Assembly (NCBI GenBank): GCA_017478105.1
Contig: JAFVEF010000047.1
Location: 27,204 to 91,203 of the forward strand
Origin: Bacilli bacterium
GTDB lineage: Bacteria; Bacillota_I; Bacilli_A; RF39; UBA660
Direction of reading: 5' to 3'
Length of the DNA stretch: 64,000 bases
The notes beneath the pieces are model-generated. The model saw only the letters and a program-made list of their open reading frames with translations. It had not been told where the DNA came from and did not search any database. Position 1 is the stretch's first letter, and each line of letters opens with the position of its first letter. Of the stretch, positions 2,897-59,638 are shown piece after piece. The position numbers were made by a program, and so were the translations under genes.

Positions 2897-4342
2897 TTAT
2901 TTCTTTCCAAACAAATTATTTAATAAACCCTTAGTTCTAACTAAAGAATATAAGCCACAATTTGGTTCAATTAAACTAATACAAGTATTAAGAATATAAT
3001 TAGTCTCTCCTGGAACTAAAACATATTTACTTCTAGGATATCTATAATCAAAGAAAAATATAGGTATTTGCATCTCATAATCAATTGTAACTAATTCATT
3101 ATTATAATCAGCTAAAGGTAAAGTCTTCTTAAGTCCATATAAACTACTAATAATTAAAGAATATTTGTTTTGACACACACCACCAATATTTCCTAATACA
3201 ACATCTATATGACTTAACTGATTCTTTAAATCATTAATCGTTTTAGATACATCCATATGATAATCAAATATAATTAAATCATAACCACCATTTTCAATTA
3301 TATTAACTATATTATTCATATCTTCATAGAATCCATCAACTATTTTCATAAAACTAATATTTGGACTGTTTTTATAAACTAAACCATTCGCAAAAAAATT
3401 AACTAAACTAATATTTTCTTCTTTAGAAATAATTAAAGCTTTTTTATTATACTTACTAAGTAAATTAGCAAGAGAATAATCATAACCTATACTTTGACTA
3501 AAATAAGGAATATTTATCTTACTATCTAATTGTATTAATGAAAAAATAGGAATTACAGGATTATCTACTTTAAATACCTCTTTCCAATTATAATAAAATC
3601 CATCAATAAATTTATCATAAGAAGTTCTTTTAGTATTAAAAAACATAAATACATCATCTTTCGTAAAAAAGCACTCATTAGTAACACAGAATCCTTCAAC
3701 CATACTAGGCTTTACATTAGCATCTCTTAAAAAATTAAACTTCTTTTCAGTATCAGTCCATCTTTCACATGTACAATAAAAGAACATTTTCTTATTAAAA
3801 TCTAATTCTTTTCTATCAAGATTTTCACTGAAGTATTCCTTACCTATAATAAAACCAATTCTTACATTACTAAAAATATGATATTTAATATAATTAGTAA
3901 TCTTAATAATACTAGCATAATCACTTGTAGTTTGTTGAGTAAGAAGTAAATGTAAATATACTTTTTTATTACTTAAATCAAACTTTGATAAAAATTCATT
4001 TACCTCTTCAATTATCCCTTCAGAAGTAGGTTCAATAAAAATATGAAATTTACCATCATTACTTTTTAATAAATTAGAAATAGAATGATAACAAGGATTA
4101 TTAACAATACTATCATTAACTATATTATTTTTAATATAATCAAATTCTATATTATTAGTATCCCCTAAAAAGAATCTTTGATAAGCTTCACGATACTCTA
4201 ATGATGAAGTAACTGCAGTAGTAAAAAAACTAGTTTCCTTTATTCTTGAGAGTCTTGGCATACATTGATCGATAGAAATACTATAACTACCTCTTTTTTC
4301 AATACCTAAACCATTTATTAAAAACAAGATACACTTATTCAT
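2897..4342 (-). CDS. alkaline-phosphatase/metalloenzyme-superfamily-like protein (weak resemblance to cofactor-independent phosphoglycerate/phosphopentomutases), likely divergent
   Basis: N-terminal ILFLINGLG... and C-terminal DLIIFDYHMD...GNIGGV resemble metalloenzyme-domain mutases, but the GNSEVGH catalytic-Ser motif is absent. Confidence 0.3.
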   Translation of the reverse strand: MNKCILFLINGLGIEKRGSYSISIDQCMPRLSRIKETSFFTTAVTSSLEYREAYQRFFLGDTNNIEFDYIKNNIVNDSIVNNPCYHSISNLLKSNDGKFHIFIEPTSEGIIEEVNEFLSKFDLSNKKVYLHLLLTQQTTSDYASIIKITNYIKYHIFSNVRIGFIIGKEYFSENLDRKELDFNKKMFFYCTCERWTDTEKKFNFLRDANVKPSMVEGFCVTNECFFTKDDVFMFFNTKRTSYDKFIDGFYYNWKEVFKVDNPVIPIFSLIQLDSKINIPYFSQSIGYDYSLANLLSKYNKKALIISKEENISLVNFFANGLVYKNSPNISFMKIVDGFYEDMNNIVNIIENGGYDLIIFDYHMDVSKTINDLKNQLSHIDVVLGNIGGVCQNKYSLIISSLYGLKKTLPLADYNNELVTIDYEMQIPIFFFDYRYPRSKYVLVPGETNYILNTCISLIEPNCGLYSLVRTKGLLNNLFGKK

Positions 4343-5236: not shown

Positions 5237-6784
5237 CTAACTTCCCTTAACAACAAATACTAATCCAGCTGGCTTATCACTACTAGCATTTAATCTATCA
5301 CAATCAGCTTGAGTTTTTCCATAACCAGTCGTAGCAGCCGCTCCTGAAAACATCCATTTAGTATCAGTTACATTACTAGTATCAAAGCTAGAAAGATCTA
5401 ATGTAGGAATTTTAGTACTATAAAACATTGAATTCATTCTAGTCACATTTCTTGTATCAAAACTACTAACATCTAATGATGAAGCATTACAAAAAGCAAA
5501 CATAAAACTCATATCAGTTACATTACTAGTATCAAAACCAGTTAAATTAATTGTTGTAGCCATACTCCAATAAAACATATCACTCATATTAGTAACCTTA
5601 TTTGTATTAAAACCACTTAAATCTAATGATTGCATCATACTTTCAGCAAACATAGCATCCATATTAGTTACATTGCTCGTGTCAAAACTACTCAAATCCA
5701 AAGAAGTTAATAAACTGCCCTCAAACATATATGACATATCTTCAACATTACTTGTATCAAAATTATCCAAATTTAAACTTGTTAATTTATTATAGTAAAA
5801 CATACCAGACATATTAGTAACATTAGATGTTTCAAAATTACTTAAATCTAAAGTTGTTATTTCAGCTTCATCAAACATCCAACTCATATTGATTACATTG
5901 CTTGTATCAAAACTACTTAAATCAATTGATGTAGCTTTACTTTCATAAAAAGTTCCACTCATAGATACAATTGGTTTATTATTAATTGATGAACATAGAA
6001 CACTATTTACAGAATCAGTTGCATCTTTATCAGTTAATATAACTCCCCAACCCAAATCACTTATATCAACAGTAACTCCACGATTACTCCATTCTTTCAT
6101 ATATACATAAGTATACTGTCCATTTACATACTCTGCACCAGGTACTAGTTCACCATTGAAGGTACATGGATTATCTCCTACATAATCATACATTATTGGT
6201 ACATTATCCCATACTTCTTTATACTTATTAGCTTGTACTGATTCTATTGTAATATCTAATTCATAGGTTGCTCCATCATAACCATCTCCAGTAGATTCAC
6301 ATGAATAAACATTATTATTAGTTGTACATGTAATATCTCCTTCAACATTTGAATTATAAGTGACACTTTTAATTAAAGAAGAAGTCTCATCTCCTGGAGC
6401 TAATTCCTCCAAATAGTAATAATAATCATCTTTTTTTAACCAATCACTTTCATTATCAAAATTAATAATTGCCACTTTCTCATTATTATATTCCAAAGCA
6501 AGTGGATTATTATTTTTACTAGTCCAAGACTCATCAAGTTTTACTCTAACCCTAACAGGAATAGTTCCCTCATTCTTAGTAACAATTCTTTTCTCTGTTT
6601 CTTCTCCTGGAAGCCAATTAGTTGGTGAAGTAAAAGTCTCCCTAGTAACAGTTTTATAAGTACCACTTAAAAATAAGTTTTCAAATACTTCATTATTAGA
6701 AAAATAAGCAAATACTCCAGATATTATAAATACAAGAGCTAAACAAAATAAAAATAAAATACTTTTCTTATTTTTAATTTTCAT
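5237..6784 (-). CDS. secreted surface protein: SipW-cognate-type signal peptide + camelysin/TasA-like N-domain fused to DUF285 (BspA-like 26-residue) repeats
   Basis: N-terminal KKS-hydrophobic-FAYFSNNEVFENLF...GTY matches the camelysin/TasA leader (GTFAFFSDKEVS.N.F..GTLDL). Mid region has NW.PGE and NEGTIPVRVRV beta-sandwich motifs. C-terminal half has about 9 repeats of DLSxFDTSNVTNMSxMF. Start at ATG preceded by TAGGTGAGTAGG. Confidence 0.7.
   Translation of the reverse strand: MKIKNKKSILFLFCLALVFIISGVFAYFSNNEVFENLFLSGTYKTVTRETFTSPTNWLPGEETEKRIVTKNEGTIPVRVRVKLDESWTSKNNNPLALEYNNEKVAIINFDNESDWLKKDDYYYYLEELAPGDETSSLIKSVTYNSNVEGDITCTTNNNVYSCESTGDGYDGATYELDITIESVQANKYKEVWDNVPIMYDYVGDNPCTFNGELVPGAEYVNGQYTYVYMKEWSNRGVTVDISDLGWGVILTDKDATDSVNSVLCSSINNKPIVSMSGTFYESKATSIDLSSFDTSNVINMSWMFDEAEITTLDLSNFETSNVTNMSGMFYYNKLTSLNLDNFDTSNVEDMSYMFEGSLLTSLDLSSFDTSNVTNMDAMFAESMMQSLDLSGFNTNKVTNMSDMFYWSMATTINLTGFDTSNVTDMSFMFAFCNASSLDVSSFDTRNVTRMNSMFYSTKIPTLDLSSFDTSNVTDTKWMFSGAAATTGYGKTQADCDRLNASSDKPAGLVFVVKGS
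5281..5935 (-). repeat. tandem ~78-bp (26-codon) DUF285 repeat array inside CDS
   Basis: Reiterated DLSSFDTSNVTNM...MF units are visible in the translation, with matching reiterated ttgtatcaaaa(ct)ta... DNA motifs. Confidence 0.7.
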
Positions 6785-6813
6785 CCTACTCACCTACTAT
6801 AAAAAATATACCA

Positions 6814-9254: not shown

Positions 9255-9287
9255 ACAAAAAAATTAGAATTAATTTTCTAATTTTTT
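9255..9287 (-). terminator. intrinsic terminator after 9270..11054 gene
   Basis: aaattagaa/ttctaattt stem spanning the stop codon, then T-run on minus strand. Confidence 0.45.
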
Positions 9288-11054
9288 TCTAACACTCTTA
9301 ATCATAAAATAAACAAGTAATAATAAACCACATATTATATTTCTATTAAAATCATTATCATAAATAGTAAATGTTTCAGGATTAATATATGCTTTATCAA
9401 TATAAGTTACTTTAATAAAAACATCTTTATCAATCATTTTAAATGAATAATAATCTCCATCTTTAGTATATTCAATATCTAATTTATTATCATCTTCATC
9501 AAAGAATTCAATTTTTAATACATCTTTACCATCTACTTGTTTTACTTTAAACTTAACATCTTCAGAAGTAAAGTAATAATCTAAAAGATCTAAACATTCA
9601 TCTCCACTAACAATATATTTAGGAAGTTCTAAAAATTCTACTTCAACTAAAACATTCTCTCCAGGCATAGTAAATGTATATAAATCATTTTCTAATGTAG
9701 GAGTAATTGCTAACTCATCACCATTATTATTTAAAAGTTTAATAGATTTAACACTAAATCCTCTATCCGGTTTTACTCTAAAACTAGCTATTTGATCTTC
9801 TTCAATAGAATTAACATCTATCTCTACATGAGAATCATTAGATGTTACGTCATAGAAATCTTTAATAACTCTATAATTAGTTTCAACGTAAACATCATAT
9901 AAAGGCATACTAAATTGATATTTTGTATCACTAATTTTAGTTAAAGGAATATCAACCTCTTCATGATTTGAATTATATAACTTAAATTCAGTAAACATAT
10001 AACCATCACGATCTTTAGCACTTATTTCAACAGTATCCCCTACTTCACTTTCTAAAACATTACTAGAAGAATAAGAATCATTATTAATCATATATTGTTT
10101 TTCAACTTCAATTATATAAGGATTGTTTCTACTTCCATCACCAAAATAATAATTAGCTGTATTTCTTAATGCAACCATTGGTCTAATACCAGCATTATAA
10201 GTAAATGTATACATATTTAACATACCCTTAGAATTAGGATACATATTTTTAGTAAGGGTATAAGGTGTCATAGACCAATAAGAATAAGAAATATTAACAA
10301 AAACACTAGTTTGTGTCTTTTTCAAAACTTCTCCAGCATATGTAACTTCATCAGCATTAATAATTCCAGTTGGATAAGTTAATTTACCATTTCCAAATGC
10401 CTTATTAACAGTATAACTATCACTATCTTCACAACTTAAATCAGGATGTCCTTCTTCAAGTCTAGTTCTAGCAATAAAATTATTTTCAGCATCCATCCTT
10501 CTATCATTACACCATACCGTATCTTCTAATTCACGAGTATAATCAGTCATATTATCTTTGTACCAATTATCTAGATATGTCTTCGCAACACTATCTTTTT
10601 CAACATCATCTTCTAAATAAGTCCATCCATACTTAGGACTAGAATTAGTATCATTATATTGACTCTTACCGATTGCTAGAGCCTCTTTTTCATTACTACA
10701 AGAATTATTATCCCATACACCAGCGTATAATAATTTAATACCACCAGTTTTAGTTGTACGAATAATTCTCCAACAAAATCCTGCATAAACGACATGATTA
10801 TTATCAATATCTCCTCTAAAATAAAGAATAGGGAACTTATCACTAGCACTACTACCAATCTTATATAAACCCTTACCATTAGTATCACTAGATGTTTCTA
10901 AAAAATCAATTCCCGTATCAGACGCTACAAACTCACTAGCTTTATTATCTAAAACGGAATTAGAGTTCAAAGTATCATATAAATTCTTAGCATAAACATT
11001 ATTAATCCAAAAAAAAGAAAATACTCCAAATAATAATAAATAAATCTTCTTCAT
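9270..11054 (-). CDS. exported Cys/Tyr-rich surface protein, short paralog of the large family (shared CW.IIRTT.TGG core and G.RP...L module), C-terminal TM anchor
   Basis: Signal peptide MKKIYLLLFGVFSFFWINNVYA. Core FCWRIIRTTKTGGIKLLYAG, VWCNDRR, YWSMTPY, GIRPMVALRN. Then Ig-like repeats and a C-terminal hydrophobic helix plus KSVRKKLEN. Confidence 0.6.
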   Translation of the reverse strand: MKKIYLLLFGVFSFFWINNVYAKNLYDTLNSNSVLDNKASEFVASDTGIDFLETSSDTNGKGLYKIGSSASDKFPILYFRGDIDNNHVVYAGFCWRIIRTTKTGGIKLLYAGVWDNNSCSNEKEALAIGKSQYNDTNSSPKYGWTYLEDDVEKDSVAKTYLDNWYKDNMTDYTRELEDTVWCNDRRMDAENNFIARTRLEEGHPDLSCEDSDSYTVNKAFGNGKLTYPTGIINADEVTYAGEVLKKTQTSVFVNISYSYWSMTPYTLTKNMYPNSKGMLNMYTFTYNAGIRPMVALRNTANYYFGDGSRNNPYIIEVEKQYMINNDSYSSSNVLESEVGDTVEISAKDRDGYMFTEFKLYNSNHEEVDIPLTKISDTKYQFSMPLYDVYVETNYRVIKDFYDVTSNDSHVEIDVNSIEEDQIASFRVKPDRGFSVKSIKLLNNNGDELAITPTLENDLYTFTMPGENVLVEVEFLELPKYIVSGDECLDLLDYYFTSEDVKFKVKQVDGKDVLKIEFFDEDDNKLDIEYTKDGDYYSFKMIDKDVFIKVTYIDKAYINPETFTIYDNDFNRNIICGLLLLVYFMIKSVRKKLEN

Positions 11055-11149
11055 AAAACACCCTCCAGTAATATTATTACCCTATTATTATGTTTTATCC
11101 AATATTATTTACCCTATATAAATATATACCAAATATAAAAATAAGTCAA

Positions 11150-11176
11150 ACTAAAAACAGACTAAAAAGTCTGTTT
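11150..11176 (-). terminator. intrinsic terminator after methylthiotransferase gene
   Basis: aaacagact-aaaa-agtctgttt GC-containing hairpin overlapping the stop. Confidence 0.5.
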
Positions 11177-12446
11177 ATTCTGCTATACAAAAAGGATATT
11201 CTAAAGAATTAATTCTACATTTAACAATACTATTATGAGGATATTCTCCCTTTATTTTAACGTGTAAATAATTCCCAGTATGTCCAATACTATAACCATC
11301 TTTATATTCTTCTACAAGTACTGATACTTCTCTACCAATAAACTTTTTCATATAATTAATTTCTAATTCACAAGATACTTCAACCAACTCTCTAGATCTT
11401 TGTTTTTTAGTAGCTTGATCAATCTTATTATCCATTCTAGAAGATGCAGTACCACGTCTTTCACTATAAGGAAAAACATGTAATTTAGAAAACTCTAACT
11501 TGCGACAAGTATCAATAGTTTTTAAAAATAATTCATTACTTTCTCCAGGAAATCCTACTATAACATCAGTACTAATCGCAATTTCTGGTCTAATACTTCT
11601 AATTTCTTCTATCTTTTTAAAGAAATAATCTAAATCATATTTTCTATTCATTGCTTTTAATATTTCATCACTACCAGCTTGTATAGGTATATGTAAATGA
11701 TCAACAAGTACATTAGAATTTCTTAATACATCTAAAACATCACTATTTAATTCAGTTGCTTCAATTGATGATATTCTAAGTCTTTCAAGTCCTTCAATTT
11801 TAACAAGTTCTCTTAATAAATCCGCAAAACTATAGTCTAAATCAACACCATAACTACCAGTATGAATACCAGTTAAAACAACCTCTTTATACCCATTTTT
11901 AACTAGATCTTTAACTTCCTTTATAACCTCATTAAAATCCTTACTACGACACTTACCCCTAACAAAAGGTATAATACAGTAACTACAAAAGTTATCACAA
12001 CCATCTTGTATCTTAACAAAAGCCCTAGTTCTACCTGGGAAAGTATCTATGTACATATCTTCAAATTGCTTTATACGTCCTGTATATTCCAACTTCATTA
12101 CATCTTTATTTTTAAAATACTCATCAAGTAATTCAACTATTCTACTTTTATCTTTATTACCTATCATGATATCTAAACCATCCTCATGATAATCAAAATT
12201 AGCTGCGATAAAACAACCCATCGCCACAACACAAGCATTAGGATTTTTCTTAATAGCTTGTCTAATCATTTTACGAGATTTACTATCACTATTATTAGTA
12301 ACCGTACAAGTATTAATTATATAAACGTCACAGATATCATCAAAATCCTTAATAACATATCCATTTTCTTTTAATTTATTAATTACAAATTCACTCTCAT
12401 AAGTATTAACTTTACAACCCAAAGTCATTACTCCAACACTTCTCAT
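11175..12446 (-). CDS. radical-SAM methylthiotransferase, MiaB/RimO/MtaB family (MtaB-like)
   Basis: MTTase N-domain (TLGCKVNTYESE), radical-SAM CDNFCSYC cluster, and TRAM-like C-terminus. Start trimmed to the MRSVGVMTLGC.. Met. Confidence 0.8.
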   Translation of the reverse strand: MRSVGVMTLGCKVNTYESEFVINKLKENGYVIKDFDDICDVYIINTCTVTNNSDSKSRKMIRQAIKKNPNACVVAMGCFIAANFDYHEDGLDIMIGNKDKSRIVELLDEYFKNKDVMKLEYTGRIKQFEDMYIDTFPGRTRAFVKIQDGCDNFCSYCIIPFVRGKCRSKDFNEVIKEVKDLVKNGYKEVVLTGIHTGSYGVDLDYSFADLLRELVKIEGLERLRISSIEATELNSDVLDVLRNSNVLVDHLHIPIQAGSDEILKAMNRKYDLDYFFKKIEEIRSIRPEIAISTDVIVGFPGESNELFLKTIDTCRKLEFSKLHVFPYSERRGTASSRMDNKIDQATKKQRSRELVEVSCELEINYMKKFIGREVSVLVEEYKDGYSIGHTGNYLHVKIKGEYPHNSIVKCRINSLEYPFCIAE

Positions 12447-12453
12447 TTTATCA

Positions 12454-13122
12454 CTATCTCTCTTTATATTTTTGATACCAATCATTTAAATACTCTTTAC
12501 CAGATTCATAGTATTCCTTAGCTTTTTCTTTACCTGAATCTATATATGGTTTATAAGTATCATAAACTTCTTTCATATCGTTAATTCCTTCATTAAAACT
12601 TTCTACTTCTTCATTATAATCTTCTTCACCAGTATAATCTTTATATTTATTTAAAATACTATTTTTTAAATCAATAACCATATCTTTAATATCTAAAGCT
12701 CCTTCTTTTAAATCTTCTTTATAATTAGGAACTTTATCTTCTATTTTAGAATCAATCTTAGTATAAATATCTAATATTTTTTCTTTAATATCATCTTTTA
12801 ATTCAGAAAAAGTTTTTCCTTTAATTTCTCCTCCATAAAAGATAAAATCAGTTAAAGTAATAAATGTATTTCTAAGTAAATGTTCATCTTTTTCACTAAC
12901 TTCTTTCTTAGAAACAATATCATTTACTTTAGAATAAGTATTATCAATATAATCAACTAATTCACTATCACTAGATACTTTCTTATTATCAATTAAACTT
13001 TCTTTTCTAACAACTTCAATAGCCTCAGTTTCTTTTGATTTTTCATTATCACTACCAAAATTAATAGTTATAGAACAACCACATAATAATAAACATAAAA
13101 CTATTATTAAATACTTCTTCAT
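12454..13122 (-). CDS. lipoprotein, hypothetical
   Basis: Signal peptide with lipobox LLLCGC. Lys/Glu-rich helical mature part. GAGGTGG RBS. Confidence 0.6.
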   Translation of the reverse strand: MKKYLIIVLCLLLCGCSITINFGSDNEKSKETEAIEVVRKESLIDNKKVSSDSELVDYIDNTYSKVNDIVSKKEVSEKDEHLLRNTFITLTDFIFYGGEIKGKTFSELKDDIKEKILDIYTKIDSKIEDKVPNYKEDLKEGALDIKDMVIDLKNSILNKYKDYTGEEDYNEEVESFNEGINDMKEVYDTYKPYIDSGKEKAKEYYESGKEYLNDWYQKYKER

Positions 13123-13152
13123 AATACCACCTCAATCGAGCAAAATTATATC

Positions 13153-13185
13153 ATAAAAAGAAAAAGAAGTAAATTATTTACTTCT
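13153..13185 (-). terminator. intrinsic terminator after 1122-aa surface protein gene
   Basis: agaagtaaa-tta-tttacttct hairpin at the stop, then T-run. Nearly the same hairpin terminates the paralog at 57350. Confidence 0.6.
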
Positions 13186-16100
13186 AATCTCCACTAGTAT
13201 CAACTACATATGGATCTGCCATAGACCCTGTTCCAGATAAATATTTAATACCCGGTTTTAGAGAGATTGCTGGACGGACGCCCATCGAACTGAAAACGTA
13301 GCTATTGCCACCTATGCTACCAGTGGTGTTAACCTTCCATACGTCAGCGTCGCCGTAGTCAAAATAGTAAGGTGAAACAAACCAGTAACTTTGTCCCGTT
13401 TTTCGAGCATTACTATTATTTAAAAGGTTCATATCGCGATAAGACATTAAACCAACTTTATATGTTAATTTTGCTTTATTATTACTTACACTAAATTTGT
13501 CTGTATCATTTGTGCAACTTAAACCACTTGCCCCATAAAAATACATATATGTCGTAGTATTTCCTCCGTTTGGATTCCATCCATTTACATCAGCACTACT
13601 TTGACTTCTATCATTACAATATATTGTATCTTCTATATAGTCATCATAATTTTTTAATAAATATTGCTTATACCATGCATCTATTCCACTTTTTATCGTT
13701 GAATTGGTTGTGTTTACGTTATCACCATATAACATTTCATGTTTGGCATCTTCTATACTTTTACCATTACTAATATTTATATAGTATGGCGTTGTTTCAC
13801 TTATGTAATAAATATAAGATATGGTTGTACATTCACCCGTTTCATTCCAACATGTATAATGTGCATTGTTTATACTTGTTTTATTAGTACTATCATTGAT
13901 ATTCCAGAAACTTATAGATGTATCGTTATCTAACACATACTTACTTCCATCCCAAGTAAATCCTTTTGCATATTTATAATTATTTGCTACCTCAATATAA
14001 TTTACTGCCGAATTTGAAGTTTCAGTTATATACCATAAATCACTACATGTATCATTTACAGCATTCTTACATACATATTTATTTTTTACATTACTATAAC
14101 TTGTATACCAATCTTTTCTTTCTATTGTTGTTGGGTTATTTATTGTATAAGTACCATCTCCATTATCAATATAACTATCTCCGTATATATAAGTATAATT
14201 GAAGTCAGATAAAGTATGGTTTCCACTATTAGTTAATTGAATATAGTAATAAGTACTATTATTTACTGCTGCAATGTATTGAACAGAACTATTAGTATTA
14301 GTTTGATCAGTATTTCTAAATGTATATTTTCCAACTAAGTTAGGATAATCTGTTGTCGCAGATACTTGATATGGATTATCTAAGTTATATCTATTTGCTA
14401 CTGGGTTTCCCCAAGTTACAGAATCGCCATACCAGTAAGTTGTTCGAAGCGACGAACGTGATAACATAGTTTCACCTGAAATCATTGTTTTAGTATAATG
14501 TGGATAAACTGTATTATACATATATCCTACATAAGCTGGTGAATTAGACTTTGGATTAAATTGTAGTGTTCCAAATTGTGAATAATTTGAACTAGAATTC
14601 AATGGTATTACATAAGCATTTGATGTATTATAATATGATTCTACTAAATATAGAGTTGTACAGGTTCCATCAACACTTGTATTTTTACAAGTATATTTTC
14701 CAATTAATGTTGGACCTGTTGTATCATTCCATGTAGTTTGTTCTGTTGTACCACTAACTTTAAATGTTTTATTAGTACTATCATAAGTATAATCTGTTCC
14801 ATACCAATAATTAGATGCAAGATTCTGAATTGTACTTGATGCATATCCTACATGTGTTTCTCTGGTGTTAAGACACTGATTGTTTTCTACTTCTCCATTA
14901 TAAATCATCTTCACTCCGCCGGTATCTGTTGTTCTAATCATTTGCCAACATTGCCCCGCAAATATAACATTATTCTTATCAAGTACTTGATTTCCTTCTG
15001 AATCATTTTTTGCATACCAATGATATATATCTTTAGATGGTTCCTCTGTAAATGAATCATGGTGGTTTTCTGTATACTTACGAGCTAATCCACCATTTTC
15101 AGTTTCTTCTTTTAAAACGTTATATAGCTTAGGAACTTCATAAATTGTTCCATCCATAGTTTTAGTAATACCTTGTTTGGTCCAAGTACCTCTAATATTT
15201 ATATCATAATTAGGCATTACGAATACTTGATCATTTATATAATTAACATCCTCATCTACTTCATATCCTTTAAATAAATAACCATTACAAGATAATTCAT
15301 CACTTTTTTTAGTGACATTACTATATGCCTTATAATTCTCACTTGTAAAATTTGTAATAGAACAACCACTTGGAGCATTAGCAAAATAATTAACTGTATA
15401 ACTATCTTTCAATACTGGAGTATCTGTTGTAGAAGAAGTAGCTTCAGTTTCATCTTCTATTTTAGAAGTACTTGTTAGTGATGAATTTAGTGGATAATAA
15501 TCACTAGAAACACCATTCTTTAATGAAACAACAATATTCAAAGTTTCACTACTTCCTGTTACAAGTCCTGATAAATTCCAACTAACTTTATTACTTTCTA
15601 AATTAACTTCACCGTTAGATGTACTAATATCATTTATAGTATCAACTTGAAAATAAGAATTGTTTATAAAATCATTAATAATAAGATTTTCATATGTTTT
15701 TGGATTTAAAGCTGCATTAAACAAAACATTATCTAAAGAATCCATAGTACTAATTAATTGTCTATCACTAACTCTAACAATTTCATCTTTTAAAGTACTA
15801 CCCATCTCATATTGAATACCAACAATTTCTAAATAAGAATACTTGTCTTTTAAAATAGCATAAGTTCCAACTTCCGCCGGAGTATCTTCTCCAGGACAAC
15901 CATCAGTTAAAAATAAAGCCACTAAATCAGTATTTTCCCTCTCACCGTAAGAAGAAAGTAATGAATCTAATTGTAGTAAACCAGAATTATAATTAGTACC
16001 ACCTGTCGTAGTAATACCATCAATTATATTTATAATATCAGTAGAATTATTACTAAACTCAGATAATAAAGTTGCCATACTATTAAAACTAATAATACTA

Positions 16101-16552
16101 ACTCTATTATTAGAATCAGATAATAATGAAGATACTAGTTCCCTTGAATCATTTTTTACTTGATCTAATTTTTCTCCATTCATAGATCCAGAATTATCAA
16201 TAATTAAAATTATATCTTTTTTATGATTACTAGAACTCTTAACTTTAGTTTTTAAATCTAAAGTTATTTCAGCCTTATTAGCACCTATCCATTTAGCAGA
16301 CTTATCTATTTTAAATCCACCTGGAGTAGAATAATTACCATTTAAAGTAACACTTTTAACTTCTTCAGTATAAACACCTGCGAAAGCAAGTATTTTCTTA
16401 TATGATTTTTTTAATATACCTTTAGGCATAAAAATAGATATACTAATTAATAATATAATTAAAGAAGTAATAAATAATCTCTTTTTAGATGAACTAATAA
16501 TATTAACTAATTTGCCTCTTTTAAAGAATGTTTTAATTCTATGTTTTAACAC
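13184..16552 (-). CDS. large exported surface protein: N-terminal von Willebrand factor A domain + conserved paralog-family core and C-terminal YW.SP...GVRPAISL module
   Basis: VWA MIDAS context DNSGSM...T(G)GTNY...TDG. Core LYNVLKEETENGGLARKYT...CWQMIRTTDTGGVKMIYNGE shared with the 711- and 762-aa paralogs. GTG start 7 nt after TAGGTGA. Confidence 0.75.
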   Translation of the reverse strand: MLKHRIKTFFKRGKLVNIISSSKKRLFITSLIILLISISIFMPKGILKKSYKKILAFAGVYTEEVKSVTLNGNYSTPGGFKIDKSAKWIGANKAEITLDLKTKVKSSSNHKKDIILIIDNSGSMNGEKLDQVKNDSRELVSSLLSDSNNRVSIISFNSMATLLSEFSNNSTDIINIIDGITTTGGTNYNSGLLQLDSLLSSYGERENTDLVALFLTDGCPGEDTPAEVGTYAILKDKYSYLEIVGIQYEMGSTLKDEIVRVSDRQLISTMDSLDNVLFNAALNPKTYENLIINDFINNSYFQVDTINDISTSNGEVNLESNKVSWNLSGLVTGSSETLNIVVSLKNGVSSDYYPLNSSLTSTSKIEDETEATSSTTDTPVLKDSYTVNYFANAPSGCSITNFTSENYKAYSNVTKKSDELSCNGYLFKGYEVDEDVNYINDQVFVMPNYDINIRGTWTKQGITKTMDGTIYEVPKLYNVLKEETENGGLARKYTENHHDSFTEEPSKDIYHWYAKNDSEGNQVLDKNNVIFAGQCWQMIRTTDTGGVKMIYNGEVENNQCLNTRETHVGYASSTIQNLASNYWYGTDYTYDSTNKTFKVSGTTEQTTWNDTTGPTLIGKYTCKNTSVDGTCTTLYLVESYYNTSNAYVIPLNSSSNYSQFGTLQFNPKSNSPAYVGYMYNTVYPHYTKTMISGETMLSRSSLRTTYWYGDSVTWGNPVANRYNLDNPYQVSATTDYPNLVGKYTFRNTDQTNTNSSVQYIAAVNNSTYYYIQLTNSGNHTLSDFNYTYIYGDSYIDNGDGTYTINNPTTIERKDWYTSYSNVKNKYVCKNAVNDTCSDLWYITETSNSAVNYIEVANNYKYAKGFTWDGSKYVLDNDTSISFWNINDSTNKTSINNAHYTCWNETGECTTISYIYYISETTPYYINISNGKSIEDAKHEMLYGDNVNTTNSTIKSGIDAWYKQYLLKNYDDYIEDTIYCNDRSQSSADVNGWNPNGGNTTTYMYFYGASGLSCTNDTDKFSVSNNKAKLTYKVGLMSYRDMNLLNNSNARKTGQSYWFVSPYYFDYGDADVWKVNTTGSIGGNSYVFSSMGVRPAISLKPGIKYLSGTGSMADPYVVDTSGD

Positions 16553-21169: not shown

Positions 21170-23275
21170 TTAATTAGTATCAACCACATAAGGATGTTCC
21201 ATAAAACCATCACCAGATAAATACACAGTTCCAGGTTTTAGTGAAACTGCCGGACGAAGACCCTGTGAAAAATAAATGCCATCGTTACTCAAGTGCCCAC
21301 TTGAAGTCACAACACAACTGTAAGCGTAGTATATGATGTTGAAAAAGTAAGGTGAAGCAAGCCAATAATATCGTCCCGCTTTTCGAACATTATCATTATT
21401 TAAAATATTAATTTCAGAACTTGACATCAATCCAACTTTATAAGTTAATTTTGCTTTATTATTGGATACACTAAATTTATCTGTTGTATTTGTACAACTT
21501 AAATCACTTGAAACATTATAATTTTTAAATTGAAGATATGTATTTGTCATACCGCCATCAGGATTCCATCCTCCAAGAGAACTGATTGATCTATCGTTGC
21601 AGAATATAGTATCTTCTAAGTAATCACTATAATCTTCTAATAAATAATGCTTATACCAGGCATCTACTCCACTTTTCATCGTTGAATTTACCTGATTAAC
21701 GCCATCATCGTACAGCATCTCATTAACTGCATCTTCAACACTTTTACCATTAGTAATGTTTATATAGTATGGCTTAGTTCCACTCATGTAATAAATATAA
21801 GATATGGTTGTACATTCACCTGTATCATTCCAACATGTATAATGCGCATTGTTTATACTTGTTTTATTAGTTTCATTCCAATCAAAGAAAGTTGTAGAAG
21901 TATCATTATTTAATACATATTTACTTCCATCCCAAGTGAATCCTTTTGCATATTTATAATTCTTTGAACTACTTATATATGTCATCGACGTATTTGATGT
22001 TGCAGTAGTATACCATAAGTAACTACATGTATCATTCACTGCATTCTTACATACATATTTATTTGCTCCCACACTACTATAGCTTGTATACCAGTCTTTT
22101 CTTTCTATTGTTGTTGGATTATTAATCGTATATGTACCGTCTCCATTATCGGTGAAACTATCTCCATAAGTATAAGTGTAGTTAAAATCAGACAATGTAT
22201 GATTTCCAGAATTAGATAGTGTAATATAATACATGGTCGAATTGTTTACTGCCACTATATAATACACATTACTATTAGTATAAGTTTGTGTTGCATTTCT
22301 AAAAGTATATTTACCTACTAAACTTGGATAATTTGCTGTGGAAGTAACCTGGTCTGGATTATCTAAGTTATATCTATTGGCAGTTGGACTTCCCCAAGTT
22401 ACAGAATCTGCATACCAGTATGATGTTGATAGTGAATTACTTGAAAACATCACTTCAGTTGAAGTCATTGATTTTGAATTGCTTGTATAAACAGTATTAT
22501 ACATATATCCTACATGTGCGGGTGAAGGAGCACTGGCATTAAATTCTAAAGTTCCAAATTGAGAATAATGTGAATTAGAGTTTATTGCTATTACATTAGT
22601 GTTTGGAGCATTATAAGAATCTATTAAAACTATTGCCGCACAAGAATCATCAATATTTTCACTTTTACATGTATATTTTCCAACTAATCCTGACGCAGTT
22701 GAATCACTCATTGTCGCCTTTTCAGTAGTTCCACTAACTTTAAATGTTTGAGTTGAACTATCATAAGTATAATCTGTTCCATACCAATAAGGGCCAACAA
22801 TATATTCAGAGTTTAATCCAGAATATCCTGGATGAGTACCTCTTGTATTAAGACACTGATTGTTTTCAGCTTCCCCATTGTAGATCATTTTTACTCCACC
22901 AGTATCGGTTGTTCTAATCATTTGCCAACAATGATCTGCAAATATAACATTATTCTTATCTAGTATTTGTGTACCTTGTGTATCGTTAGTTGCATACCAA
23001 TGATATATATCTTTAGAAGGAGCATCTGTAAATGAATCATGATGTGCACCTGTATACTTCGTAGCTAATCCTCCTGTTTCTGCTTCTTTTGCTAAAACAT
23101 TATATAAAGTCTTTTCATAATACTTTTTAACATTTAAATTACCATTTATATTTAAATTAGTAGAAAGTGTAGAATATCCAATAGATAGAAACATAAAAAG
23201 TACTAAAATTATATTTAGTACCAATCTCTTATTAAGTAGTTGTCTTTTCTTAACAATTCTTCTCATCTTTTTCAT
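21170..23275 (-). CDS. large exported Cys/Tyr/Asn/Thr-rich surface protein (paralog family member)
   Basis: N-terminal ~150 aa are about 90% identical to the 57350..59638 product, including the signal/anchor KKRQL..LVLFMFLSIGYSTLSTNLNING. C-terminal YYWLASP...GLRPAVSLKPG. Start at MKKMRR, 5 nt after GGTAGGT. Confidence 0.75.
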   Translation of the reverse strand: MKKMRRIVKKRQLLNKRLVLNIILVLFMFLSIGYSTLSTNLNINGNLNVKKYYEKTLYNVLAKEAETGGLATKYTGAHHDSFTDAPSKDIYHWYATNDTQGTQILDKNNVIFADHCWQMIRTTDTGGVKMIYNGEAENNQCLNTRGTHPGYSGLNSEYIVGPYWYGTDYTYDSSTQTFKVSGTTEKATMSDSTASGLVGKYTCKSENIDDSCAAIVLIDSYNAPNTNVIAINSNSHYSQFGTLEFNASAPSPAHVGYMYNTVYTSNSKSMTSTEVMFSSNSLSTSYWYADSVTWGSPTANRYNLDNPDQVTSTANYPSLVGKYTFRNATQTYTNSNVYYIVAVNNSTMYYITLSNSGNHTLSDFNYTYTYGDSFTDNGDGTYTINNPTTIERKDWYTSYSSVGANKYVCKNAVNDTCSYLWYTTATSNTSMTYISSSKNYKYAKGFTWDGSKYVLNNDTSTTFFDWNETNKTSINNAHYTCWNDTGECTTISYIYYMSGTKPYYINITNGKSVEDAVNEMLYDDGVNQVNSTMKSGVDAWYKHYLLEDYSDYLEDTIFCNDRSISSLGGWNPDGGMTNTYLQFKNYNVSSDLSCTNTTDKFSVSNNKAKLTYKVGLMSSSEINILNNDNVRKAGRYYWLASPYFFNIIYYAYSCVVTSSGHLSNDGIYFSQGLRPAVSLKPGTVYLSGDGFMEHPYVVDTN

Positions 23276-23328
23276 ACTATACCTACCATATGAATTATAT
23301 ATCAAAATTAAAAGAAATGCAAATAAAC

Positions 23329-26672: not shown

Positions 26673-28286
26673 CTATTTAACAACAAATGTCAAACCTGAT
26701 GTTTTCCACTTACTCGAATTAAATCTATCACAGTCAGCCTGAGTTTTACCATAACCTATTGTTGCTTCAGCATTACAAAACATCAAATCCATATTAGTAA
26801 CATTACTAGTATCAAAACTGCTTAAATCTAAAGTAGTTGCTTTACTTCCATTAAACATACTATACATATTAGTTACGTTGCTAGTATTAAAACTACTTAA
26901 GTCTATTGATGTTGCTTTACTATAAGAAAACATATTACTCATACTAACAACATTACTGGTATTAAAACTACTTATATTTAAAGTAGCTGCATTACTACCA
27001 TAAAACATATAATCCATATTAGTTACACTACTGGTATCAAAAGTACTTAAGTCTAGTGTGGTTGCTTTGCTACTATTAAAAAAATAACTCATATCAATAA
27101 CATTTGATGTATCAAAACTACTTAAATTTATACTAGTTGCATTGCTATATTCAAACAAAGAGTGCATATCGGTAACATTTGAAGTATCAAAACCACTTAA
27201 ACTTATATTAGTCGCTTTACTCCAAGAAAACATATGACTAATATTAGTAACATTTGAAGTATCAAAATTACTCAAGTCCAGATTATTAACTTCACTACTT
27301 GAAAACATACCATTCATATTAGTAACTTTTGAAGTATCAAAAGCACTTAGATCAAGGCTTGTTGCTTTAATCCCAGAAAACATTGCTGCCATTTCTGTAA
27401 CATTTGAAGTATCAAAGTAGCTTAAATCTATACTACTGGCTTTGCTATAACTGAACATATAAAGCATTGAAACAATCGGTTTATTATTTATACTACTACA
27501 CAATGTTGTAGTAACTGGTTCAGTCGATTCTTTATCAGTTAGAGCAACACCCCAACCATCATCAGTGATGTTTCTCCAATCTACATAATCTTTCTCTTGT
27601 CTATATCTATAAGTATACTGTCCATTTACATATTCTGCCCCTGGTATTAATTCACCATCAAATGTACATGGATTATCTCCAACATAATCATACATTATTG
27701 GAACATTTTCCCATACCTTATCATACTTATTAGCCTGAACAGTTTCTGTTGTTATATTTAATCGATAAGTTGCCCCATCATAACCATTCCCAGTAGATTC
27801 ACAAGTATTTACTCCATTTTCAAATGTACAAATAACATCTGCCTCAACATTAGGATTAAACGTAACACTTTTAAGTAAAGATTCAGTACTCTCCCCTGGT
27901 GCTAGTTCTTTTGTATAGTAATAATATTCATCTTTATAAAGCCAATCATTTTGATTATCTAAATTAATTATCGCAACTTTTTCATTATTATATTCTAATG
28001 ATAATGTCTCATTATTTCTACTTGTCCATGATTCATCTAATTTAACCCTAACACGTACAGGAATAGTTCCTTCATTTTTAGTTGTTATTGTTTTTGGTGT
28101 TTCATCACCAGGAGTCCAATTAGTTGGACTTTGAAATACTTCTCTTGTAACAGTTTTATAAATTCCTGCTGAAAAAATATTTTCAAATGTATCAGTAGAT
28201 AACAAATATGCAAAAGATCCCAAAACTAAGAAAACTACAAAAACTAAAACAATAAATATTAAACTTTTCTTATTCTTTAATTTCAC
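26673..28286 (-). CDS. secreted surface protein: SipW-cognate-type signal + camelysin/TasA-like N-domain + DUF285 repeats (paralog of 5237..6784)
   Basis: GTG start after AGGTGA. N-terminus (M)KLKNKKS...SFAYLLSTDTFENIF...GIYKT. About 9 DLSxFDTSNVTNM..MF repeats. N-domain nearly identical to the paralog. Confidence 0.7.
   Translation of the reverse strand: MKLKNKKSLIFIVLVFVVFLVLGSFAYLLSTDTFENIFSAGIYKTVTREVFQSPTNWTPGDETPKTITTKNEGTIPVRVRVKLDESWTSRNNETLSLEYNNEKVAIINLDNQNDWLYKDEYYYYTKELAPGESTESLLKSVTFNPNVEADVICTFENGVNTCESTGNGYDGATYRLNITTETVQANKYDKVWENVPIMYDYVGDNPCTFDGELIPGAEYVNGQYTYRYRQEKDYVDWRNITDDGWGVALTDKESTEPVTTTLCSSINNKPIVSMLYMFSYSKASSIDLSYFDTSNVTEMAAMFSGIKATSLDLSAFDTSKVTNMNGMFSSSEVNNLDLSNFDTSNVTNISHMFSWSKATNISLSGFDTSNVTDMHSLFEYSNATSINLSSFDTSNVIDMSYFFNSSKATTLDLSTFDTSSVTNMDYMFYGSNAATLNISSFNTSNVVSMSNMFSYSKATSIDLSSFNTSNVTNMYSMFNGSKATTLDLSSFDTSNVTNMDLMFCNAEATIGYGKTQADCDRFNSSKWKTSGLTFVVK
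26726..27440 (-). repeat. tandem 26-codon DUF285 repeat array inside CDS
   Basis: Reiterated protein and DNA units, as in 5281..5935. Confidence 0.7.
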
Positions 28287-42647: not shown

Positions 42648-42674
42648 AAACAAAAAAAGAAGCAAAACTTCTTT
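42648..42674 (-). terminator. intrinsic terminator after Rpn-like gene
   Basis: aaagaag-caaaa-cttcttt hairpin at the stop with T-run on minus strand. Confidence 0.5.
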
Positions 42675-52358: not shown

Positions 52359-52649
52359 TTATTCACCAACTGGATATACAGAAGCTTGTTTCTTATCTCT
52401 TCCTAAACGTTCAAATTTAACTACTCCATCTACTAAAGAATATAGAGTATCATCATTTCCACGTTTAACATTGCATCCAGGAAAAACTCTTGTTCCTCTT
52501 TGACGATATATTATAGAACCAGCTGTTATGAATTCACCATCAGCTGCTTTAGCTCCTAATCTACGACCTGCAGAATCACGACCATTAGATGTTGATCCTT
52601 GCCCTTTGTGGTGAGCAAATAATTGAATATCTAACTTTAAAAATCTCAT
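52359..52649 (-). CDS. rpmA: 50S ribosomal protein L27 with N-terminal Prp-cleavable propeptide
   Basis: [11 protein letters not shown]|[15 protein letters not shown]... The extension-plus-AHKKG motif is typical of Firmicutes L27. Confidence 0.95.
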
Positions 52650-54459: not shown

Positions 54460-54555
54460 TAACACTTCCTATTCTATTAATTATTATAAACAAATATATT
54501 AAATAAAACAATAAAATAAATAAAAAAATGATATTGCTTGTCAATATCATTTACA

Positions 54556-57259: not shown

Positions 57260-57319
57260 AATACCAATCCCCTCTGATTAACGTGCTATATTATAACACA
57301 TTTTAGATGCCTTTGCAAC

Positions 57320-57351
57320 CAAAACAAAAAAAGAAGTAAAACATTACTTCT
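57320..57351 (-). terminator. intrinsic terminator after 762-aa surface protein gene
   Basis: agaagtaa-aaca-ttacttct hairpin at the stop, then long T-run. Paralogous to the terminator at 13153..13185. Confidence 0.6.
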
Positions 57352-59638
57352 AATTTCCACTAGTATCAACTATATATGGATTTGCCATAGAACCATCTCC
57401 ATCAGAATAACGGGTGCCTGGTGTCAGTGAAACTGCCGGACGTACGCCGACAGAGTTGTTGACGATGTAGTTGTTCATGTTACCGTTCGTGTCCACGTAA
57501 CGACCGCGAGCAAAGTTTTCGGTGAAATAGCGAGGCGAAGCAAGCCAATAAATTTGTCCTGTTTTTCGAGCGTTACTATTATTTAAAATGTTCGCTTCCG
57601 GACTTGACATCAATCCTACTTTATAAGTTAATTTTGCATTATTATTGCTTATACTAAATTGATTGATTGTGTTTGTACAACTTAAATCACTTGTTACACT
57701 ATATTCCTTGAATTGTAGATAATCATTTGTCATACCACCATCTGGATTCCATCCATTTAATGCTCTTATACTTCTATCATTACAGAATATTGTATCTTCT
57801 ATGTATTCATCATAATCTTCTAATAAATAATGTTTATACCATGCATCTACTCCACTTTTCATTGTAGAATTTGTGGTGTTTTTTGTCAGCATATCTTCTA
57901 GTGCTTTATCAACCATTGTAACTCCATCTTTTAATGTTATATAAACCATATAGCCAGTTCCAGTATAATAATACACATAAGCTACTGTCGCACATGTTTT
58001 GAGTCCTAGTGATACACACATATAGTGATGTGTAGAAATATTATTCATATTATTATAGTTTTCAATTTCTATTGGATCTACCAATGTATAATTGGTTCCA
58101 TCCCATGTTACACTACTACCATAATAATGATTTGGTGCATAATTATAACCTGAAGCACTAATTGAATCAATCATTCGGAGTGTTTCTTCAGTACATGTTG
58201 CATTTTCAGTATTACACGTATACTTATAATCACCATAATTACTTGAATTAATCACTAATTCATCTTTTCTTACTAACAATGAATCCGTAAGAGTTAATCC
58301 ACTTCTTGTCTTTCCAATTATTATCTTCTCACCCGCATTTATATACGTGTAGTTCATGGATGTTGTTGCTGTAGTATATCTTGGAGAAGCACATGTTGTA
58401 CTACTATCATTACAAGTATATTTATTTTTATAATTGGCAAAGTTTGTATACCAATCAGATAATGTCACATTGGTTGGATTATTAATTGTATATGTACCAT
58501 CTCCGTTGTCACGAATGGAATCTCCAAATACTATTGGTTCATAAGCAGACAATAAGTTACCACTTTGTAGTTGTTTATAATACATTGTTGTGTTATTAAC
58601 TGCCGCAATGTAATATACACCTGTATTAGTATAATTTTGAGTAGTATTTCTAAATGTATATTTTCCTACCAAATTAGGATAATCTGTTGTACCACTTACT
58701 TGGTATGGGTTTACTAATGAATATCGATTAGCAGTTAAAGTACCATAATCAATACTATCCGCATACCAGTATAATGTTCCTAAAGATCTTGATTGTAACA
58801 TAGTTTGTGTTGTTGTAAAACTTTGACTTGTTGTTCCACTTGTTGAACTATATGCATAAACATCTCCGTACATGTATCCAACATAAGTTGGTGAATTTTC
58901 ACTTGCATTAAATTGTAGTATTCCAAATTGTGAATAATTGGAACTTGAGTTTAATGGTATTACATAAGCACTAGATGTATTATTATAAGATTCAACTAAA
59001 TAAAGAGTTTCACAAATACCATTCACATCTGCTAATTTGCAAGTATATTTTCCAACCAATCCAGGTCCATTGCTCTCATTCCACATAGTTTGTTCTGTTG
59101 TACCACTAACTTTAAATGTTTCAGTTGAACTATCATATATATAATCAGTTCCATACCAATAATTTGAAGCTAGATTTTGACTCGTTCTTGCTGCATACCC
59201 TACATGTGTTCCTCTGGTATTAAGACATTTCCCGTCGTCTGCCTCTCCATTATATATCATTTTTACTCCACCAGTATCTGTTGTTCTTATCATTTGCCAA
59301 CAGTGATTGGCAAATATAACATTATTTTTATCAAGTATTTGTGTACCTTCAGTGTTATTTTTGGCATACCAGTGAAATATATCTTTAGAAGGAGCTTCTG
59401 TAAAGGAATCATGATGTTCACCTGTATACTTCTTAGCTAACCCTCCAGTTTCTGCTTCTTTTGCTAGAACGTTATAAAGAGTTGGTTCATAATACTTTTT
59501 GACATTTAAATTACCATTTATATTTAAATTAGTAGAAAGTGTTGAATATCCAATAGATAGAAACATAAAAAGTACTAATAAAATATTTAGTACTAGTTTT
59601 TTATTAAATAGTTGTCTTTTCTTAACTATCTTTTTCAT
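57350..59638 (-). CDS. large exported Cys/Tyr/Asn/Thr-rich surface protein (paralog family member)
   Basis: Signal/anchor MKKIVKKRQLFNKKLVLNILLVLFMFLSIGYSTLSTNLNING, core ...CWQMIRTTDTGGVKMIYNGE..., C-terminal IYWLASP...GVRPAVSLTPG. ATG after TATATAGTAGGTG. Confidence 0.75.
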   Translation of the reverse strand: MKKIVKKRQLFNKKLVLNILLVLFMFLSIGYSTLSTNLNINGNLNVKKYYEPTLYNVLAKEAETGGLAKKYTGEHHDSFTEAPSKDIFHWYAKNNTEGTQILDKNNVIFANHCWQMIRTTDTGGVKMIYNGEADDGKCLNTRGTHVGYAARTSQNLASNYWYGTDYIYDSSTETFKVSGTTEQTMWNESNGPGLVGKYTCKLADVNGICETLYLVESYNNTSSAYVIPLNSSSNYSQFGILQFNASENSPTYVGYMYGDVYAYSSTSGTTSQSFTTTQTMLQSRSLGTLYWYADSIDYGTLTANRYSLVNPYQVSGTTDYPNLVGKYTFRNTTQNYTNTGVYYIAAVNNTTMYYKQLQSGNLLSAYEPIVFGDSIRDNGDGTYTINNPTNVTLSDWYTNFANYKNKYTCNDSSTTCASPRYTTATTSMNYTYINAGEKIIIGKTRSGLTLTDSLLVRKDELVINSSNYGDYKYTCNTENATCTEETLRMIDSISASGYNYAPNHYYGSSVTWDGTNYTLVDPIEIENYNNMNNISTHHYMCVSLGLKTCATVAYVYYYTGTGYMVYITLKDGVTMVDKALEDMLTKNTTNSTMKSGVDAWYKHYLLEDYDEYIEDTIFCNDRSIRALNGWNPDGGMTNDYLQFKEYSVTSDLSCTNTINQFSISNNNAKLTYKVGLMSSPEANILNNSNARKTGQIYWLASPRYFTENFARGRYVDTNGNMNNYIVNNSVGVRPAVSLTPGTRYSDGDGSMANPYIVDTSGN

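Follow-up and report, generated by a model that had tools for sequence, protein, structure and literature searches.

A GC-rich patch in the C-terminal domain of a Bacilli surface protein as the probable, no longer diversified, variable region of a diversity-generating retroelement

Near the 3' end of a gene for an 1122-aa surface protein, here called P1, in a 64-kb stretch of contig JAFVEF010000047.1 (assembly GCA_017478105.1, Bacilli bacterium; the whole of this stretch is termed the window), an earlier note made from the sequence had pointed out a GC-rich, adenine-poor patch of rare codons, and had offered targeted mutagenesis by a diversity-generating retroelement (DGR), import from a higher-GC donor or a structured cis element as explanations. 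The patch is very probably of DGR origin, that is a variable region (VR) in the C-terminal DUF6273 domain of P1, and it is probably no longer diversified in this genome. For the joint claim, a DGR-written VR that is now frozen and decaying towards AT, we estimate a probability of about 0.68. We found that P1 and two paralogs, P2 and P3, carry segments homologous to the VRs and template repeats (TRs) of complete DGRs in related gut and rumen genomes, that the differences from the TR are biased towards adenines, that no DGR cassette is present in the ~76 kb of DNA read, and that the three VRs do not vary among the available assemblies.

Results

A GC-rich island coincides with the hypervariable stretch of P1

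The three genes concerned are as follows.

13184..16552, (-) strand: P1, 1122-aa surface protein, NCBI MBR1937047.1, 'VWA domain-containing protein [Bacilli bacterium]'
21170..23305, (-) strand: P2, paralog of 701-711 aa with no VWA domain and a similar C-terminal DUF6273-like domain
57350..59638, (-) strand: P3, 762-aa paralog, DUF6273 match of 26.2 bits, above the cut-off of 23.5

From N- to C-terminus P1 consists of a hydrophobic segment, a VWA domain (VWA/VWA_2 match in Pfam), a repeat-rich middle and a DUF6273 (C-type-lectin-like) domain. The last 259 aa, when scanned alone, gave a DUF6273 match of 27.3 bits over residues 148-236 (cut-off 23.5), and the VR lies within the matched region, ahead of the GVRPA motif. 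The corresponding domain of P2 (701-aa gene call, MBR1937052.1) scored 20.8 bits, which is under the same cut-off.

The shift in composition was as had been reported: positions 13261-13320 are 51.7% GC and 13255-13400 are 46.6% GC, against a window mean of 26.0%. With 100-nt windows, GC content exceeds 50% only at 57349-57583 (P3, maximum 56%) and 13210-13410 (P1, maximum 53%), and only six regions of the 64 kb lie more than 3 standard deviations over the mean, the P2 patch at 21226-21330 (45%) among them. Other, lower peaks are found at 51082-51194, in the Obg gene (49944-51215), and at 52514-52619. The P1 island is sharply bounded and lies in the last ~120 codons of the gene. It is also poor in adenine, which makes up 20-25% of the coding strand there and 39% in the remainder of P1; across the paralogs the values are 25-29% between the YW..SP and G(V/L)RPA motifs and 38-40% outside. 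The codons quoted in support of rare codon usage (GGC GTC CGT CCA GCA and GAC GCT GAC) are present, and codons ending in C account for 45% of those between YW..SP and GVRPA in P1 but for 4.5% in the remainder of the gene, the equivalent figures being 34.5% and 6.8% for P2 and 61% and 6.9% for P3.

The patch is indeed the hypervariable stretch, as DNA identity between the paralogs drops from 74-81% in the 300 nt upstream plus the downstream flank to 49-54% within it. However, the stretches are not of identical length in the three paralogs, as had been claimed, being 29, 29 and 28 aa, nor are they unrelated in sequence, since all three align to one template sequence (below). A 'second patch' described at 14440-14470 does hold the rare codons CGT TCG TCG CTT CGA, but it is much weaker, with 42% GC. 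No similarity to TR or VR was found at 14395-14462, and P2 and P3 use AT-rich codons there. A fourth, distant DUF6273-like domain in the window served as an internal control. It has kept the motifs at 28% GC and 3% C-ending codons, with Lys and Met codons present, and so the DUF6273-like domain does not in itself require GC-rich codons.

14395..14462, (-) strand: 'second patch', about five rare codons in P1, outside the VR; 50% GC in the best 60-nt window, 100-nt windows at 40% or less
10179..10280, (-) strand: internal control, YW..P...G.RP stretch of the fourth, distant DUF6273-like domain, in gene 9270-11054

A database search with the last 259 aa of P1 returned 127 homologs, mostly fragments on short contigs, and 61 of the 127 have YWLxSP, then about 28 hypervariable residues, then GVRPA-VSL.PG..Y.DGDGSMANPY. 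Within the hypervariable stretch, F3, A8, often G10 and R/W11, V13, G17, M19 and V24 are fixed, and the residues seen at the other positions (N, S, Y, D, G, A, V, F, I, T, H, C, R and L) are those that NNC codons can encode. The stretches differ even where the C-terminal tails are identical, for example in P0003, P0030, P0035, P0041 and P0043.

Complete DGRs adjoin homologous targets in related genomes

One genome per species was scanned with the scaffold GCT NNC GGT CGT NNC GTG NNC ACG NNC GGT NNC ATG (NNC)4 GTC (NNC)2. This gave six loci in rumen and gut metagenome-assembled genomes (MAGs) labelled Erysipelotrichaceae, Tenericutes or Clostridia; five of the loci are on four contigs with VRs, TRs or both, and L005 has a VR only. 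On contig L002 (the contig of P0030) the order is a VWA/DUF6273 target, a 120-nt repeat, an avd-like open reading frame (ORF) of 121 aa and a reverse transcriptase (RT) of 500 aa. The VR is at 10627-10746 and the TR at 11061-11180, so that the repeat lies 434 nt downstream of the variable stretch. The same arrangement is seen in L006, L007/L009 and L010, and L008 has the TR, avd and RT. The RT of L002 (11722-13224) has an RVT_1 domain, and IGAMTSQ and YMDD motifs could be read in its sequence. The avd-like protein is 92.6-93.4% identical in L006, L007, L008 and L010; it has no Pfam match, and is a candidate Avd by position. We also noted that the relatives' RT has a C-terminal extension, residues 357-399 of which weakly match MutS domain I (PF01624, E = 7e-5), and that a Pfam hit of the PF01624 type is precomputed for many of its database homologs. 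The RT falls in a cluster of 240 members, none of which was traced to the source samples of the present genome.

The TR of the relatives reads TGG CTT GCT TCG CCT AAC TAT TTC AAC AAC AAC AAC GCT AAC GGT CGT AAC GTG AAC ACG AAC GGT AAC ATG AAC AAC AAC AAC GTC AAC AAC AC. AAC GG. GTG CGT CC. GCA and contains 18 AAC codons; an anchored search pattern for an AAC-rich repeat of this kind would be, for example, GCTAACGGTCGTAAC...ATGAACAAC. In the cognate pairs that aligned cleanly (L002, L010 and L009/L007), the VR differs from the TR at 21-25 of 42 TR adenines and at 0 of ~76 other bases. The L006 pair was left out of the scoring, having a 3-nt insertion and no gap-free alignment. Differences confined to adenine in three pairs are the defining signature of a DGR. 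At the 3' end the VR and TR have GGCGTGCGTCCGGCA in common, after which they diverge (G/A TTTC A/C).

The cassettes of the five relatives (L002:11061-13224, L006:4109-6253, L007:5645-7801, L008:502-2646 and L010:2120-4281) are closely similar, with RTs 96.6-98% identical in amino-acid sequence and TRs differing by 1-3 nt, whereas the target proteins next to them share only 50-82% identity with the paralogs of the window. A cassette that is near-identical in five MAGs suggests either horizontal movement or very strong constraint, as judged from sequence comparison. The TR core was not found in the viral contigs of IMG/VR, and a phage origin of the cassette is thus not supported. The genomes that carry the template are as AT-rich as the present one, at 26-33% GC. 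We also found remote targets whose VRs are fresh but for which the retrieved DNA contains no TR (L005:3244-3666, L016:1371-2663 and L017:10001-11266); these VRs have 57-65% GC and 64-75% C-ending codons. The VR of L005 equals the conserved TR at every non-adenine position. Those of L016 and L017 have a TGG variant of the scaffold, which implies a second TR lineage.

The three window segments align with the relatives' template

The conserved TR of the relatives (L006/L007) was used as a proxy for the cognate template in all comparisons with the segments of the window, which are listed below.

13263..13384, (-) strand: P1 VR segment, TGG TTT GTT TCA CCT to GCA ATC TC; aligns over its full length with the relatives' TR
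13263..13282, (-) strand: 3' end of the P1 VR, GGC GTC CGT CCA GCA ATC TC; homologous to the relatives' GC-rich VR/TR 3' boundary
21243..21364, (-) strand: P2 VR segment, the most decayed of the three; 37-41% GC, 34.5% C-ending codons
57429..57547, (-) strand: P3 VR, an almost intact DGR VR; highest GC peak of the window

The P3 segment differs from the TR at 16 of 40 adenines and at 3 of 79 other bases (C>A, C>T and G>A; Fisher p = 1e-6), and seven AAC triplets are left in a 162-nt stretch around it. By this comparison the P3 segment is unmistakably a DGR-written VR, and among the window paralogs P3 is also the nearest to DGR-adjacent targets elsewhere (82% amino-acid identity to that of L010, 79-81% to that of L002). 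All three of its non-adenine changes are towards A or T; two are synonymous and the third gives GAA. As GAA would need an AAA template codon, which is stop-prone, the changes are most simply explained as drift after the last homing event.

In P1, 18 of 40 adenines and 21 of 79 other bases are changed (8 C>T and 2 G>A among the latter; Fisher p = 0.036). There is one extra codon relative to the template, and the hypervariable core between SP and GVRPA occupies 13283-13369. GC content is 50% over 13263-13384, the second-highest peak of the window. For P2 the counts are 22 of 40 adenines and 19 of 79 other bases (10 C>T and 4 G>A; Fisher p = 9e-4). At non-adenine positions P1 and P2 are 73-76% identical to the TR, and the paralog flanks are 74-81% identical to one another. 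This equality indicates that the scaffold diverged along with the gene and that the excess divergence lies at template adenines, a pattern which fits VRs that would have been frozen since the genes diverged. Our inference is that a DGR formerly wrote the segments of P1 and P2, and that these have since diverged along with the genes.

At the 3' boundary, P1 (GGCGTCCGTCCAGCAATCTC) shows three changes from the relatives (G>C, G>A and T>C), P2 has GGTCTTCGTCCGGCA, and P3 has one change (GTA). A homing signal of the initiation of mutagenic homing (IMH) type would be expected at this boundary of the relatives, and a homing function of the homologous P1 sequence is putative.

The composition of the segments forms a graded series. 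Fresh VRs of the relatives have 55-65% GC and 64-75% C-ending codons; the values are 48% and 61% for P3, 46% and 45% for P1, 37% and 34.5% for P2, and 28% and 3% for the fourth DUF6273-like domain, which bears no trace of DGR writing. Most of the non-adenine changes are C>T and G>A. Since a change from NNC to NNT never alters the amino acid, the ACT, GGT, AAT and AGT codons of P1 are explained by AT-biased drift with purifying selection acting on the protein.

No template, RT or avd was found in the DNA that was read

The search for a cassette covered ~76 kb (the 64-kb window and 10 kb to its left) of a contig of 167 kb in an incomplete MAG from a ruminant gut metagenome study (ENA ERZ27256838 k141_581718); the window takes up positions ~100739-164738 of this contig, and only 2.4 kb follow it on the right. 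A scan of the window for a template that tolerated mismatches at adenines gave A-rich chance matches only. Strict IUPAC patterns ('VR base or A'), written for P1 and for P3, matched the window at the VRs and nowhere else. No RVT_1 match was obtained among 30 ORFs of the window scanned with Pfam, which included most of those of at least 250 aa. Searches by tblastn with the RT of the relatives gave no match either in the window, where the best E was 3.1, or in the adjoining 10 kb on the left, and the 121-aa avd-like protein of L002 likewise had no match in the window or in those 10 kb (L140).

The position after P3 was of particular relevance. In the relatives the corresponding place holds ~240 nt followed by TR, avd and RT, and the spacer in the window contains no cassette.

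57260..57349, (-) strand: P3 3' spacer, 90 nt from the P3 stop to the next gene (56330-57259); no cassette

A 340-aa protein encoded at 53528-54550 has a homolog downstream of the RT in L002, L007 and L008, and the P3 locus is thus partly syntenic with the loci of the relatives. We infer that the cassette is missing from the rest of the genome as well.

The VRs are invariant among the available assemblies

The comparison of strains is based on consensus assemblies from five or six samples of one study. P1 is identical in three contigs, and its VR is identical in L001 and L018, the latter coming from another sample and having four single-nucleotide polymorphisms (SNPs) in 7.4 kb, none of them in the P1 VR. 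In the proteins P0257 (one amino-acid change) and P0259 (two changes), all differences from P1 and P2 fall outside the VRs, and P0259 has the P2 VR unchanged. L011, L014 and L142 all carry one and the same P3 VR, that of the window. A second homolog search, made with the C-terminus of P3, found no variant closer than 85% and no swarm of P3 alleles. The earlier note had named invariance of these segments in population data as grounds for giving up targeted mutagenesis, and as far as public assemblies allow they are invariant, which argues against mutagenesis that is still going on.

Differences do occur close to the P3 VR. L142 has nine SNPs at 57666-57806, within 140 nt upstream of it, and L014 has six differences in 38 nt at 57915-57952, also upstream; only one SNP is found in the remaining 14 kb. 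Of the variant bases of L142, nine in all, four match P2 and four match P1, which hints that gene conversion among the paralogs may have taken place.

Other features of the window

The neighbours of the three genes are housekeeping genes (helicases, a MiaB-like radical SAM enzyme, tgt, queA, ruvB, obg and ribosomal proteins). P1 and P3 have a similar hairpin plus T-run right after the stop codon (13150-13183 and 57316-57349; GAAGTAA..TTACTTC TTTTT), and the paralogy thus reaches beyond the coding sequence; the 3' flanks of P2 and of the DGR-linked relatives differ from this. Two further family members were seen. The gene at 9270-11054 (594 aa), which contains the control domain of ordinary composition, continues with Flg_new_2-type repeats, and a 765-aa gene ~8 kb to the left of the window (L140:19856-21605) has a start that resembles the region preceding the C-terminal domain of P1.

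Tandem repeats are found elsewhere in the window. Two DUF285 paralogs (5237-6793 and 26673-28286) contain arrays of a 75-nt (25-aa) repeat at 5347-6021 and 26702-27526, in 7 and 9 overlapping registers of a 225-nt reference copy. At 42767-42994 there are 24-nt repeats in seven overlapping 84-nt registers, 65-93% identical to the reference copy; this array is a local GC peak and lies inside an ORF (42673-43659) that matches a PD-(D/E)XK transposase family. The ORF of 481 aa at 2897-4342 is intact in the window, L140 and L141, and is represented by two genes (194 and 268 aa) in the SAMN15829994 assembly (L139, L001), which is either a strain-level disruption or a sequencing difference.

Discussion

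How the island would have arisen can be set out from the way DGRs work, which is established for these elements in general and can be seen in the relatives. The AAC-rich TR is transcribed, and a dedicated RT together with Avd copies it with misincorporation opposite adenines, after which the cDNA overwrites the VR. The VR in this way takes over the GC-rich scaffold and the NNC codons of the TR and loses adenines, and a TR scaffold written into a genome of 26% GC would account for a GC-rich, A-poor island of rare codons. In the present genome writing would then have stopped, leaving the three VRs to decay towards AT in the order P3, P1, P2. The DGR idea of the earlier note is thus upheld as to origin, by the homology to the relatives' VRs and the adenine-biased differences, and not as to current mutagenesis, since neither the window nor the adjoining 10 kb on the left nor the place after P3 yielded a template or RT, and P1 shows a 27% mismatch at non-adenine positions.

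A number of points weigh against this account. The adenine bias of P1 is marginal by the present alignment (p = 0.036), and a structure search did not confirm the C-type-lectin fold of the domain. The three non-adenine differences of P3 could sit in the TR of its own genome, and the 27% non-adenine divergence of P1 could equally reflect a diverged TR of its own. The sampled strains may share a clone, and consensus assemblies hide minority variants. Contigs of five assemblies (two Logan, three ENA) break at or near the P3 VR (57422 twice, 57521, 57596 and 57650), which could be due either to hidden heterogeneity of the VR or to the paralog repeats. A cassette may lie elsewhere in the genome, with ~90 kb of this contig and all others beyond the DNA read, and remote VRs with no adjacent TR do occur in this family (L005, L016, L017).

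One alternative, the leading idea of the earlier note, is a live DGR, with an RT and one or more templates elsewhere in the genome that diversify P1, P2 and P3 in trans. The remote fresh VRs of the family, the mere three non-adenine changes of P3 together with its retained GC-rich 3' boundary, the fragmentation of assemblies around the P3 VR and the large part of the MAG beyond the ~76 kb read are all compatible with it. However, P1 and P2 mismatch the TR at 24-27% of non-adenine positions and would need diverged TRs of their own, yet the TR is near-identical in five relatives. Moreover, AAG and ATG in P1 and GAA in P3 stand at variable codons and would need AAG or AAA template codons, which are stop-prone, none of the three VRs varies among strain variants with differences elsewhere, and the syntenic place after P3 has no cassette. 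We regard a live DGR as unlikely overall, and as unlikely for P1 in particular, the chance for P3 being somewhat greater; it is nevertheless the most serious competitor to a frozen VR.

If recombination or horizontal transfer had brought in a cassette from a donor of higher GC, the patch would have the composition of that donor; the GC shift is local and sharply bounded, as this would predict, and the 96.6-98% conservation of the relatives' DGR cassette across MAGs taken one genome per species hints at mobility of the element. The shift is, however, periodic by codon (C in the third position, NNC) and does not amount to a general rise in GC, the same 85-nt stretch is affected in three paralogs with ordinary flanks, and the segment aligns to an AAC-rich template of relatives that themselves have 26-33% GC. 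Codon periodicity and template homology do not fit such an import, which we consider very improbable. Ordinary selection on amino-acid content or codon usage, for a binding loop rich in Gly, Ser and Tyr or for translational tuning, would call for no retroelement at all. Residues G, S, Y, D and N are abundant in the loop, and GC-richer runs occur in a few other genes (51082-51194 in Obg; 52514-52619), but these peaks are lower, the synonymous choice in the patch is unusual (TAC, GAC, GGC and AGC over the T- or A-ending codons of the genome), and the fourth DUF6273-like domain keeps its motifs at 28% GC with 3% C-ending codons, and so this explanation, too, has very little to recommend it. Least probable of all is that the coding sequence harbours a structured cis element of RNA or DNA, for instance an attenuator or a hairpin with a regulatory role. 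There is a weak terminator-like hairpin at 13298-13311, and a hairpin near the end of the VR can occur in DGR targets, as in the Bordetella phage DGR; the predicted folding energy (-37.6 kcal/mol) is, however, close to that of shuffled sequences (-34.5 +/- 4.0 kcal/mol, z = -0.79), no Rfam match was obtained at E <= 1 in 12800-14800, and paralogs and homologs vary freely in the stretch.

If the reading of a frozen, decaying VR is accepted, compositional islands in AT-rich genomes would flag DGR targets even where the retroelement lies outside the available sequence or has been lost, and the signature to look for in this family is a GC-rich patch of C-ending codons between YW..SP and GVRPA. The series of paralogs would likewise show what becomes of hypermutated binding sites after diversification stops, with loops that are fixed and drift to the composition of the genome. 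The VWA/DUF6273 proteins are probable ligand-binding surface adhesins of uncultured ruminant-gut Bacilli. We would suggest only tentatively that this lineage is a natural 'DGR-loss' experiment, in which the cassette is mobile or repeatedly gained and lost and the VRs persist as fixed binding loops, their signature decaying in a clock-like manner (P3, P1, P2); were this true, the decay would date the loss of the DGR and the successive duplications of the targets. In a bolder version, the cassette may lie elsewhere and fire rarely, with a separate diverged template for each paralog.

Comparison with known systems

The segment belongs to a well-known kind of system, and no new kind of system needs to be invoked. 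The prototype is the DGR of Bordetella phage BPP-1 (Mtd VR, TR, Avd and bRT), in which the IMH lies at the GC-rich 3' boundary. As in BPP-1, the VR described here is C-terminal, in a domain predicted to have a lectin fold, the VRs of the relatives differ from an AAC-rich TR specifically at adenines, and the VR/TR 3' boundary is GC-rich. Unlike that of BPP-1, the RT of the relatives has the extra C-terminal region resembling MutS domain I. Multi-target DGRs, for example those of Treponema and Legionella, act in trans on remote VRs, and all of these VRs match one TR at every non-adenine position. The paralogous targets spread over tens of kb in the window, and the remote L005 VR of the relatives with its match to the TR at non-adenines, are reminiscent of such systems, from which P1 and P2 depart in mismatching the TR at 24-27% of these positions.

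In published work DUF6273 is a C-type-lectin-like target of DGRs, and the VR lies at the end of the domain (PMC10743442). The present proteins resemble the DUF6273/C-type-lectin targets, such as the phage 'tentaclins' and Mtd-like proteins (PMC10743442; bioRxiv 10.1101/2024.10.15.618418), in the position of the VR at the C-terminal end of DUF6273, in the NNC/AAC codons, in the TR-avd-RT that adjoins orthologous targets in the relatives, and in differences from the template that are restricted to or biased towards adenines. They differ in that no TR or RT was found in the DNA read here and the VRs are invariant, and also in being VWA-plus-repeat surface proteins of AT-rich Bacilli/Erysipelotrichaceae-like gut MAGs and not phage tail proteins. 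Targets have been noted to persist in some genomes with no DGR, in the case of Toutatisvirus phages (bioRxiv 10.1101/2024.10.15.618418). The genes of the window are similar to these orphan or degenerate targets in that the target genes and VR-shaped segments persist with no visible cassette; what sets them apart is that they form a chromosomal family of three paralogs with a graded compositional decay from P3 through P1 to P2.

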